From Ignavibacteriota bacterium (GTDB lineage Bacteria > Bacteroidota > Ignavibacteria > Palsa-1295), in NCBI GenBank assembly GCA_963787835.1, contig CAWBEI010000003.1, positions 1-64,000 on the forward strand: a stretch of 64,000 bases of DNA, given 5' to 3'. This document shows positions 6,751 through 9,705 of this stretch, piece by piece. Below the pieces are notes generated by a model that had not been told where the DNA came from, did not search any database, and saw nothing but the letters and a program-made list of their open reading frames with translations. The translations under genes and the position numbers were made by a program. Within the stretch, counting starts at the first letter, position 1. Every line of letters starts with the position of its first letter.

Positions 6751-7134
6751 CTAATACAATCCCTTCACCTCATCATTTCGGCGGCGCACTTCGGAACGAA
6801 TGACGGCAAGGGATCTGCGGACCCAATCGTAGGTCTCTTTATCTGGCCGCTCGCCATTCAGGAATCGTACCATCGCCGATTCGCTGGAGAGCACATCATC
6901 GATGCTCATCACTCCAGGTGATTTCGAGTTATCCTTTCGGATGATCAGATTCTCGATGTTCTCGCCAATGGCATCGGCAATTTTCTTGAGGGTATGCTCG
7001 GTCACGCCGGATTCGTTATTTTCGATACGGCTCAGATGAGCTTGCGTGATCTTTGCTTCGCGGGCCACATGCCCTTGTTTAAGCCCCCGCTCTTCTCTTG
7101 CCCGCCGAATTCTTTCGCCCTGAGTCTCTGCCAT
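6751..7134 (-). CDS. XRE-family repressor-like regulator with C-terminal extension
   Basis: GERIRRAREERGLKQGHVAREAKITQAHLSRIENNESGVTEHTLKKIADAIG. Confidence 0.9.
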   Translation of the reverse strand: MAETQGERIRRAREERGLKQGHVAREAKITQAHLSRIENNESGVTEHTLKKIADAIGENIENLIIRKDNSKSPGVMSIDDVLSSESAMVRFLNGERPDKETYDWVRRSLAVIRSEVRRRNDEVKGLY

Positions 7135-7269
7135 TTGCTAAAATATGTGTGAATTATGTCGTACTTAAGTTAAGATAAGCAATTTCTTAGAAAGAAGAGT
7201 TCGTATTTATTTCTTTTGTGGAACAAGTTGTTGATTTTTTTAGGTTTAGGTAATAGAATTCGTTTAGGC

Positions 7270-7495
7270 AAAGAAAAAACCCTGGCGCTTGAGGTGCCAG
7301 GGTCTTCTCGGTGAGAGTGCGGATGGTTAGTCCGCATTGGATGTGTGATCATCCATTTGTTTTTGCGAAGCGCGCTCATCTCTGCGCGCCTTGGTTGCGA
7401 AACTCTTGTGCTCTTGAGGATTCCTAATTCCTCAAGAGCACTTGAGGGAGAGAAAAGCCAGATGAGGTTGTCATCTGGGTTTGGTTGCGATTATA
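7270..7495 (-). ncRNA. Candidate structured sRNA or 3' UTR: six hairpins with repeated UCGCAA linkers
   Basis: Perfect stems at 7458-7478, 7408-7441 (13 bp), 7370-7389, 7338-7355, 7318-7336 and 7279-7303; TATAAT (minus) at 7495-7490; ends in a terminator. Confidence 0.5.
7271..7303 (-). terminator. Intrinsic terminator
   Basis: ACCCTGGC-9 nt-GCCAGGGT followed by TTTTTCTT on the minus strand. Confidence 0.75.
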
Positions 7496-7529
7496 TTGCG
7501 ATTTTTCATCTAATCTAATAGAGAAACTT

Positions 7530-8195
7530 TTAACAGACGATCGCGGAACGGGCTGCTTTGCCAAAGCCCCACCGCTGTAAGTCCCGAACCGAGATATGTG
7601 GCGAACCCGTGATGTAAAAACGGTATCCGTCAAAACTGACCTGATCCGATAGCATCAGAACTCCGGTAACTCGCGCCGAGCAAACGGTATCTGCAAATTC
7701 GAATTCATTCAAGTCGGCAATGGCCGATACTCCAAGCGATACAACACGTCCCGAAAAACTCGGACCTTCATAAAGGTGTGCCTTCGAATTCCATCCGGAA
7801 TGATCGATCACCAGACGCTGGGATGCGTCACTGGAATCCGTGCTCAGAGGATTATTAGACAGCACCGTCACTCCCTGATTCGCCGTCTCGCTATAATTTT
7901 GATAGCGATAGAGCCGAACCAGCTCTTCCGAACGTGCAAAGGCATCGGCGTACTGTGTGCGCTGGCTCCAGGCTTCGAACGCATCGCGCGAATCGAATAG
8001 ATAAACCAGATTCCGCTCATCGACGACTGTGCCAGCCACAATGACGGGTTCATAAGCATTAATCAAAAAATACTGAAATTGACGATGGGTAAGCACATTA
8101 CCATCGAAAACGAAGTGCGGTCCTCCATCAGCCGCGGGGGGCGGACGGTAGGCCTTCAGCAATTTTTCTTCCAATATCAACGATTGGGGCATCAT
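7530..8195 (-). CDS. Protein with C-terminal beta/gamma-crystallin domain and unknown N-terminal domain
   Basis: Two Greek-key motifs LYEGPSFSG...DLNEFEFADTVCSARV and LSDQVSFDG...DLQRWGFGKAARSAIV; GAGG RBS. Confidence 0.7.
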   Translation of the reverse strand: MMPQSLILEEKLLKAYRPPPAADGGPHFVFDGNVLTHRQFQYFLINAYEPVIVAGTVVDERNLVYLFDSRDAFEAWSQRTQYADAFARSEELVRLYRYQNYSETANQGVTVLSNNPLSTDSSDASQRLVIDHSGWNSKAHLYEGPSFSGRVVSLGVSAIADLNEFEFADTVCSARVTGVLMLSDQVSFDGYRFYITGSPHISVRDLQRWGFGKAARSAIVC

Positions 8196-8213
8196 AAGTA
8201 ACCTCGTGTTTTC

Positions 8214-8351
8214 TTGTAAATGACGGGTTCAAAGCCCATTTGCCTCTGACGACCGATTCATTATGAATCAGATGTGTCAGATGGGTTTCCCATGGAATCC
8301 TAATGGTTAGGATTTCGCAGGGTTTTTCCCCGTCATTAGTTTCGCTTACAA
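8214..8351 (-). promoter_or_regulatory. Multi-stem 5' leader, candidate cis-regulatory RNA
   Basis: Closing stem 8219-8227/8329-8337 enclosing nested stems 8235-8285 and 8296-8314, just upstream of the RBS. Confidence 0.4.
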
Positions 8352-8431
8352 AATTACAGGGTCATAGGGGTAACACACCAATCAGAACGACACATTTATT
8401 CACCGGATTTTTGGAGCTGGTGAAAACACTT

Positions 8432-8462
8432 TTAGGCCACCCATCAGCATTGGGTGGCCTAA
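8432..8462. terminator. 12-bp hairpin, probable terminator of the 8660-9040 transcript
   Basis: TTAGGCCACCCA-7 nt-TGGGTGGCCTAA. Confidence 0.6.
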
Positions 8463-8659
8463 CAATTTTAGGTCAAAAATTCACGCAACCTCTTTCCATT
8501 CAGCTACTTACAGCCGAACTCTCTCACACATTCTAACCACACCACATGGTTAGATGTATGCCATTTCTTCATCAATTTTCATTGAAATCTCACGCCAAAA
8601 GCGCATTTTGGCTTAAAATTTCTTTCGAAACCTACCGAATTCTGGCTATCAGAAATCTA

Positions 8660-9040
8660 TTAGCCAACTTCTTCGGTATCCGGCCATCCGTTCGAACCCG
8701 GGTTTCCAATTGCAACACCCATTGCAGTGGATCCCGCCATGTTCCATTGGAAAGCAATTGTACCGGCAGGCGTACCTGGCATTACGATATTTGCCCCAGC
8801 AGGAACGGTGTTTCCAAAAACTGTTATAGCAACGACCTGATCACCATTAAGATTGGTCGGCAGGTTCTGACCTGGCCCGAGAGCAACCGGAATCTGAGCA
8901 CCTGACTGCATATTCAAGGTGATATTCAACTGCGAATTGGTCTGATTCGAGCTTGTGAATACCAAGTTAGTGGCGTAAATGGAGAAGAAGCCGACTACGA
9001 GAACCGCGAGGATGGCTGAGAATTTCTTGTTGAGTGTCAT
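8660..9040 (-). CDS. Small secreted beta-rich hypothetical protein
   Basis: Signal peptide MTLNKKFSAILAVLVVGFFSIYA; N/G/T-rich mature part with acidic tail WPDTEEVG. Confidence 0.75.
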   Translation of the reverse strand: MTLNKKFSAILAVLVVGFFSIYATNLVFTSSNQTNSQLNITLNMQSGAQIPVALGPGQNLPTNLNGDQVVAITVFGNTVPAGANIVMPGTPAGTIAFQWNMAGSTAMGVAIGNPGSNGWPDTEEVG

Positions 9041-9705
9041 TTTAGTTGTTGCTGATGCGGATGAAAAAAATAGCGTAAGAAATACCTATACCACGCGATA
9101 CAACGGTGCATCAGTGGCAAAAATCTTTTGTTAAAATTGTTACATATTCCGTAAACCCCACGAGGAGATCACGTGAAAATCGCTCGCAACGATGCGGGCT
9201 TCGCAAAATTTGATCATCGCGCCTTCTGCCCACGAGGGCCATCCCTAAAGGGAAGAAGCTAACCTATGATCTTTCTTTAACCAGGAAATCGAGACATATT
9301 TATGTGATCTCGATGTATTTCGAACCTTATATAGGACGATACATCGCCAATTAAGGTTATTTTAAGCCACCTACACAGATATAGGAGACTAACAATATCG
9401 AGGCATTGCCTATTTTTGTAGGCGACGCCCCCTTATTTAAACGAGTCAGAGTGACTTAGCGTTACTAAAAAAAATAATTTATCATTTTAAAATATTTATT
9501 CTACTTTCTTTTAAGAAAGCACTAAAACATGTTAACAAGTGTATTTGTGTCAGAACCGCTCCAACTTACGCTTATTTTACCATAGGTAATACTACTTTAT
9601 GTTTCTAAAGAGATTTCAAAATGAAATTTACGTTGAAATACGTAAGAAATTGCAAAATTGAAACGATTCTAACCGCTGAAGGGATAATAGTCACTATAAA
9701 ACACC

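Follow-up and report, generated by a model that had tools for sequence, protein, structure and literature searches.

A conserved modular RNA array with repeated unpaired motifs lies 3′ of a crystallin-like gene in one bacterial family

Known multisite and modular RNAs

The RNAs CsrB, CsrC, RsmY, and RsmZ carry one short motif in many copies, spread over hairpin loops and unpaired linkers, on stems of variable sequence (PMC5027483; here and below, statements that cite a paper are limited to the parts of it that were available). The cuckoo or RSs0680 (CcsR) RNAs of Alphaproteobacteria are built from hairpin modules that vary in number and present constant C-rich unpaired motifs on variable stems, and they lie downstream of a hypothetical gene, with which they are cotranscribed, and are followed by a terminator (PMC4615179). 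Post-transcriptional control without Hfq or CsrA in bacteria related to the Bacteroidota is only starting to be understood, with RRM proteins as candidate players (PMC11697453). Known ligands of single-RRM proteins are single-stranded stretches of sRNAs and 3′-end stem-loops (PMC11697453, PMC12232666): the Bacteroides RRM protein RbpB works with the sRNAs FopS and GibS, FopS being 14 dispersed short base-pairing sRNAs (PMC11697453), and Synechocystis Rbp3 binds stem-loops at mRNA 3′ ends, with single UUNGN elements (PMC12232666). The Chlorobi-RRM motif (Rfam RF01697), from a related lineage, is a structured 5′ leader RNA linked to RRM genes (PMC2864571).

The locus described here lies on the minus strand of a window of 64,000 nt, the whole stretch of DNA that was analyzed, from a 98% complete genome (G000); coordinates without a contig or locus label are positions in that window. 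At 7270 to 7529, from the stop codon of a crystallin-like gene to the U tract of an intrinsic terminator, it holds a modular structured RNA array that, by analogy, would resemble Csr-type titrating RNAs in its working and cuckoo RNAs in its build, yet belongs to neither family. As in the Csr/Rsm RNAs, one motif recurs in loops and linkers, the stems vary in sequence, and an intrinsic terminator stands at the 3′ end (PMC5027483). The motif, however, is GCAACC or UCUCAC rather than GGA, which instead of being present in multiple unpaired copies occurs unpaired 0 to 1 time per array in 11 homologs; moreover, the array combines several types of motif and appears to lack its own promoter, and CsrA was not found in G000. 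Like the cuckoo RNAs, the array consists of modular hairpins 3′ of a protein gene with a terminator at the end, but it lacks their loop motif CCUCCUCCC (CCTCC occurs once in 11 arrays), bears its motifs in linkers as well, and shows no signal of pairing with start regions, and Hfq was not found. The ligands of RbpB and Rbp3 differ in that neither, as the available parts of the papers describe them, is a dedicated multisite array (PMC11697453, PMC12232666).

The array also falls outside the CrcZ-type RNAs, the Chlorobi-RRM motif, and the type III antitoxins. CrcZ-type Hfq/Crc sponges carry repeated AAnAAnAA motifs, which gave 0 to 3 overlapping matches per array, and again Hfq was not found. 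The Chlorobi-RRM motif, for which autoregulation has reportedly been proposed, had no match in G000 at E ≤ 10, and the array stands 3′ of a crystallin gene, not in an RRM 5′ UTR. In type III toxin-antitoxin loci (ToxIN-like), an RNase toxin gene is preceded by periodic repeats and a terminator; the array repeats are nonperiodic, with an XRE HTH gene downstream and a gene for a crystallin-domain protein upstream. The literature on Kapabacteria noncoding RNA, GCAACC-binding proteins, and CrcZ/CsrB gave no account of the array; the supplements of RNA-motif surveys lay outside this scope and could hold a similar motif.

Fold and conservation of the array

Read on the minus strand, 7529 to 7270 has an MFE of −92.1 kcal/mol (z = −8.55), with 0 of 200 shuffles equally stable, and is predicted to fold into five hairpins and an intrinsic-terminator-like hairpin with a U tract (7309 to 7270), much as the earlier note had described a string of hairpins ending in a terminator. 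From the 5′ end, an unpaired linker (7481 to 7501) consists of UCGCAA (TCGCAA at 7501 to 7496) and UCGCAACCAA and includes a TATAAT at 7495 to 7490. Hairpin H1 (7458 to 7478; 8 bp), with the loop CAACC at 7470 to 7466, is followed by the conserved unpaired motif CUUUUCUCUCCC (7446 to 7457) and by H2 (7403 to 7446; 13+3 bp), whose loop is variable and whose pairs changed on both sides in 6 of 14 cases. The linker motif TCGCAACCAA, or UCGCAACCAA (7391 to 7400, also at 7490 to 7481), leads to H3 (7368 to 7391; 8 bp including two G-U/A-U end pairs), again with a variable loop, and the linker TCGCAAAAACAAA, or UCGCAAAAACAAA (7356 to 7368), leads to H4 (7338 to 7355; 6 bp), with the conserved loop AUCACA, of UCRCAC type. 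H5 (7318 to 7336; 6 bp) has the loop CUAACCA, invariant in 5 of 5 colinear homologs, and the unpaired CUCUCACC (7310 to 7317) stands directly 5′ of the terminator. The letters of the TATAAT, TCGCAA, and linker motifs thus proved correct as previously quoted. An RGATGA said to follow the linkers is likewise present, at 7476, 7381, and 7354 (also at 7511), but it is mostly stem-forming (GATGA has a mean unpaired probability of 0.32) and varies among homologs.

Intergenic DNA of G000 is generally hairpin-rich, and the stability of the array alone is unexceptional: in GC-adjusted folding, it ranked 20th among 664 gene-downstream regions of the genome, 41 of which have at least five clean hairpins. 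A 6-mer recurring in three separate unpaired segments was found in 6 of the 664, and only the array region combines this with five hairpins. The distinctive feature of the array is therefore its repeated unpaired motif. A search of Rfam 15 gave no match to the array itself, the window yielding only weak hits (E ≥ 0.33) that all lie outside it, and no match at the gathering threshold across 14 homolog loci. No paralogs of the array were found in G000 by BLAST, motif-cluster scan, or covariance model.

The crystallin-like gene was found in 15 of the 35 genomes of family f1; a sample of 178 genomes from the other families of the class had 0 with the gene. Carriers among named records are “Candidatus Kapaibacterium,” Bacteroidetes, and Ignavibacteriota MAGs; viral contigs gave no phage copies of the gene. 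A structured region lies 3′ of the gene in 14 of the 15 genomes (z of −3.2 to −9.5, with region ends set by eye at the terminator), the exception being G008 (z = 0.1). Nine genomes have a GCAAC-rich array of 205 to 470 nt (class 1), G003, G004, and G007 have a short version without GCAAC, and the long arrays of G021 and G017 repeat different unpaired motifs, UUGCCC and UUAAUCC. Among 11 metagenome loci, three were too short and two duplicated genome loci; the new variants are L047 (identical to L048), L050, L051, L054, and L056, the last likewise with motifs of the UUGCCC/UUAAUCC type. A tandem unit of ~100 nt is present in three copies in L051 versus two in G005, and G010 keeps four GCAACCA and two UUUUCUCUC with two small hairpins left before the terminator.

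Arrays of the second class were located at L038:1933-2432, in L040 (3′ of the crystallin gene), at L054:744-1128, and at L056:1035-1484. Their motifs are UUGCCC (10 versus 0.5 expected), UUAAUCC (8 versus 0.1), and UUUAGUUUGCC; L054 mixes both array classes. The sequence UUUUAGUUUGC also occurs upstream of the crystallin gene in G017 and G008.

A covariance model built from five colinear copies gave strong hits (E ≤ 3.6e−5) in 8 of the 35 genomes, four of them training and four new, all at the 3′ end of the crystallin gene and with the array in single copy; two further genomes gave weak hits only. The earlier note had looked to covariation and linker conservation in homologs as marks of its candidate RNA, and both were observed. 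Across the colinear set of five, pairing holds in 94% of cells, and both partners changed in 12 of 41 pairs, a count that 0 of 500 shuffles reached and that compares with 1 to 4 such pairs in slid structures; because there are only five related sequences, this covariation is suggestive, not conclusive. Identity to G000 is 78% in the linkers and 86% in the loops of H4, H5, and the terminator; the corresponding values are 32 to 43% for four-fold sites in the adjacent gene and 38% for the loops of H2 and H3. The array is a real, conserved, uncatalogued, and narrowly distributed modular RNA. A conserved peptide encoded in the array was also considered and is excluded, since indels of 1, 2, and 7 nt among the homologs break the frame.

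The array could in principle lack a function and consist of REP-like hairpins and tandem duplications that piled up behind a terminator. A dispersed hairpin, ATGAGCRATCAT (ATGA-GC[AG]A-TCAT), is present in 38 copies in G000, 25 of them intergenic, H4 in G009 and L047 is one base off its reverse complement, tandem duplications are visible, and many downstream regions are rich in hairpins, as described above. Nevertheless, we consider this reading very unlikely, given that linker conservation is about twice that of silent sites, that the motifs are found again in unrelated stems and remain after hairpin loss, and that the stems covary.

Linkage to the crystallin-like gene

The gene that ends directly 5′ of the array (7530 to 8195, minus strand) encodes a 221-aa protein with a C-terminal beta/gamma-crystallin domain (Pfam E = 1.4e−5; structure comparison Z = 14.6, rmsd 1.4, 81 aligned). 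No signal peptide was seen in the protein sequence, and its N-terminal domain had no fold match at E ≤ 0.001 (best Z, 2.8). This N-terminal domain (7893 to 8195, minus strand) recurs in other bacteria (52 hits), in proteins that bear lipoprotein-like signal peptides.

A sigma70 promoter within the array, previously suggested on the basis of the TATAAT at 7495 to 7490, did not hold up. The hexamer is not conserved in homologs, and no conserved promoter-like element was found between the crystallin stop codon and the terminator; instead, a conserved TAnTTTTGT element (TAATTTTG at 8349 to 8356, minus strand) lies upstream of the crystallin-like gene. The element is promoter-like and of the TAnnTTTG type of Bacteroidota. 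Since no conserved internal promoter was found, expression of the array would be tied to the crystallin gene, in contrast to that of CsrB, and since the TATAAT is not conserved and the array follows that gene, it is probably the 3′ UTR of the crystallin-like gene or a product cut from it. A structured 3′ UTR, which the earlier note had offered as its alternative, indeed best describes the position of the array. The crystallin leader itself (8196 to 8345, minus strand), 150 to 260 nt long across homologs, contains a conserved hairpin, and in the G000 copy its ends GACGGG...CCCGUC may pair close to the ribosome-binding site.

On the other side of the array lies an XRE-family HTH gene (6751 to 7134, minus strand), of which all 24 good-quality family genomes have a single copy each; it is an inconstant neighbor. 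It is downstream of the array in eight of nine class 1 genomes. In G001, the array stays with the crystallin gene and the XRE gene is ~163 kb away with no motifs in front, and no motif array was found at XRE loci away from the crystallin gene. Judging by a conserved promoter-like GAACT...AATTG element between terminator and XRE gene (7171 to 7202, minus strand), the XRE gene appears to have its own promoter. The array belongs with the crystallin gene and not with the XRE gene, to which it had initially been linked. An HExxH protein gene is found 3′ of the XRE gene in 8 of 29 loci (e.g., L012:2259-2831), but not in G000, a pairing that we presume to be an ImmA/IrrE-like arrangement; the HExxH protein in G009 had no Pfam hit. 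The sequence ATTCACACA is repeated upstream of the XRE gene in some genomes and may be an operator.

These neighbors bear on the idea that the array acts on the protein next to it as an RNA antitoxin or decoy, in the manner of type III toxin-antitoxin or AbiF-like systems, or else that it is a leader regulating the XRE gene. The partner protein in such systems has a nuclease or RNA-binding fold. A repeated RNA does stand beside a protein whose N-terminal domain lacks a clear fold match, and the XRE gene is 3′ of the array in nearly all class 1 genomes. However, the C-terminal half of the protein is a beta/gamma-crystallin, distant relatives include some with lipoprotein-like signal peptides, and the array repeats are not periodic; for an XRE leader, the terminator and a separate promoter-like element intervene, and the XRE loci away from the crystallin gene are without the array. 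We therefore regard either form of this idea as highly improbable.

A small gene (8660 to 9040, minus strand) precedes the crystallin gene in those genus homologs in which it could be placed; it encodes a 126-aa protein with a signal-peptide-like N terminus, for which no Pfam family was found and Atlas leads were all under 0.9. Its 3′ region (8432 to 8659, minus strand) is a hairpin string conserved in 14 homologs; among its elements are a stem carrying the conserved GCGUGAGAUUU and, at 8462 to 8432, a terminator-like hairpin. About 40 ORFs of G000 have a very different, GC-rich codon usage and suggest a foreign or contaminating stretch in the assembly.

One metatranscriptome run holds part of the stretch (share, 0.11). 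A contig from this RNA library covers 7134 to 7541, with a compensatory change at 7460/7476 and a G-U wobble at 7461 in H1 and no listed substitution in 7270 to 7459. The contig passes the terminator, reaches as far as the XRE start, and may stem from DNA or read-through; it is therefore evidence for conservation rather than for a discrete transcript. Another contig covers 8521 to 8627; the coding regions of the crystallin-like and small genes are without cover in that single run, which is uninformative.

If the array is a 3′ UTR, it may act only in cis, with one or more bound proteins stabilizing or localizing the crystallin mRNA and no sponge acting in trans. This reading, possible though somewhat unlikely in our estimate, fits nearly as well as a decoy. 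It draws on the fact that all 14 structured regions among the 15 genomes strictly adjoin the crystallin stop codon, on the lack of a conserved internal promoter, on the conserved hairpin-rich 3′ region of the upstream small gene, and on the precedent of cyanobacterial Rbp3 on mRNA 3′ ends (PMC12232666). On the other hand, as many as 10 motif copies and the tandem amplification of whole units seem excessive for an mRNA tag and are typical of titrating RNAs, and the crystallin-like protein, being without a signal peptide, gives no reason for targeting to the membrane.

Repeated motifs and candidate partners

The motif set across linkers and loops is GCAACC, UCUCAC, YUWACC, and UCRCA; conserved unpaired motifs beyond those first quoted are CUUUUCUCUC, CUCUCACC, and, in loops, CUAACCA and UCRCAC. 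In 11 class 1 homologs, whose sequences are kin and hence not independent, GCAACC was observed 36 times versus 1.4 expected (mean unpaired probability, 0.84) and UCUCAC 17 times versus 1.1 expected, the latter in 11 of 11 homologs and also in the short G003/G004 versions. Arrays hold 0 to 10 GCAAC each. With 25 of 45 GCAAC sites in linkers, 12 in hairpin loops, and 3 in internal loops, the motif recurs in unrelated stems. These motifs are likely protein binding sites. Elsewhere in G000, the 16S rRNA has six GCAAC, and at C5:72100-71900 (minus strand) two UUCUCAC flank a hairpin just 5′ of a terminator, a possible minimal relative of the short arrays.

The sponge RNA proposed in the earlier note fares well as a design, in that the array is a structured RNA with repeated single-stranded motifs, but the mimicry of translation-start regions attached to it is at most weak. 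Near starts, YAACC was found 72 versus 48 times (P = 0.035, uncorrected) and UCAC, like YAACC, ~1.4- to 1.5-fold more often (P = 0.0095, uncorrected); GCAAC was not enriched (26 versus 31), and the motifs were absent by eye from ribosomal-protein start regions. GCAACCA and CUAACCA just before the start codon in a glnA-like leader (C6:214505, minus strand) and GCAACAAC in the start region of the small secreted gene (9041 to 9060, minus strand) are isolated cases without a genome-wide trend. Mimicry of the tRNA-fMet 3′ end was rejected, since the tRNA-fMet of G000 ends in ...CCGCUA and not in GCAA.

A related possibility is a multiseed base-pairing sRNA, similar to the cuckoo/CcsR RNAs, whose C-rich loops and linkers would pair with G-rich ribosome-binding sites. 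The array is cuckoo-like in its modular hairpins, its constant C-rich unpaired motifs, and its place 3′ of a small gene (PMC4615179), CUCUCACC and CUCUCCCUC resemble the 16S 3′ end GAUCACCUCC, and a minority of genes have AGGAG near their starts (44 versus 21). Nevertheless, when five unpaired segments were compared with ~2,900 start regions, pairing was no better than in the reverse-complement control (top-1% counts of 29 to 32 for sense versus 29 to 69), and no bipartite complementary site near a start was found. The GCAAC complement was not enriched near starts (16 versus 31), the crystallin gene's own leader showed no cognate pairing (−12.5 versus −13.0 kcal/mol), and Hfq and ProQ were not found. 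We consider base pairing unlikely to be the function of the array.

With regard to proteins that could read the motifs, CsrA (PF02599), Hfq, ProQ, KhpA/B, and the cold-shock domain were not found in the 98% complete G000; three RRM genes were, in the C4:43154, C2:1630567, and C2:1441614 regions, and genomes of the lineage have 2 to 4 RRM proteins each. Within the genus, GAGCRAUC occurs in 8 of 14 leaders of Gly-rich RRM genes (a set from which the glycine cutoff may have misclassed two further RRM genes), with 17 sense and 0 antisense copies, compared with 15 sense and 15 antisense among 873 background leaders. A sense-only hairpin (GAGCGAUC) in RRM leaders is the pattern that autoregulatory sites would give. 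GCAACC was found in 0 of the 14 leaders.

The dispersed hairpin AUGA-GCRA-UCAU, of which GAGCRAUC is the core, is specific to the genus, with 5 to 75 copies per genome in G000 and 14 other members versus 0 to 7 elsewhere in the family and 0 to 1 for a backward control; it may represent a site bound by RRM proteins or else a REP-like element. Its sites in G000 include C2:1630537 (an RRM leader), C3:311884 and 312145 (inside tmRNA), and five tandem copies at C5:291595-291674, with a variant before rpoA at C2:1318542, and it often caps longer local stems. The RRM-leader hairpin occurs once each in the arrays of G001, G005, G011, and G017, G005 having a GCAACC variant as well; the G000 array is without it. 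Hairpin copies do not track array motifs, as G004 has 43 copies and no GCAAC and G010 has 5 copies and four GCAAC. A link to RRM proteins would require that one protein recognize both GCGAUC/GCAAUC and GCAACC.

Our tentative reading, put forward by analogy and still somewhat short of an even chance, is that the array is a multisite platform that titrates an RNA-binding protein in trans, as a Csr-like decoy. It builds on the structure, the covariation, the motif enrichment, the variable module number, and the crystallin linkage. The array would be transcribed from the crystallin promoter and end at the terminator, and cleavage at the A/U-rich stretch that follows the stop codon could release a stable 3′ fragment. 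The role of the stems would be only to space and expose the motifs, and a protein binding the repeats would be titrated as CsrA is by CsrB; possibly, this protein is one of the Gly-rich single-RRM proteins. Recognition of GCRAYC by an RRM protein and action of the RNA in trans are the most speculative steps. A fuller version, in which the array is a dedicated sponge for single-RRM proteins that autoregulate via GCRAUC leader hairpins, with tunable GCAAYC/UCUCAC sites and sister clades that switched the code to UUGCCC/UUAAUCC, is rather doubtful.

The narrow range of the array, three genera of one family among the genomes searched, limits its general importance, and the host is apparently known from assembled genomes only. 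Even as a cis-acting 3′ UTR, the array is an uncatalogued RNA family with a variable number of modules. Its homologs form a natural variant set with defined candidate sites (GCAACC, UCUCAC, and the GCRAUC hairpin) and three small RRM proteins as candidate readers, so that both the binding code and the role as a sponge are testable in vitro. If the array is indeed a sponge for single-RRM proteins, it would form a control circuit of Csr-like type in a lineage that yielded no CsrA, Hfq, ProQ, KhpA/B, or cold-shock proteins.
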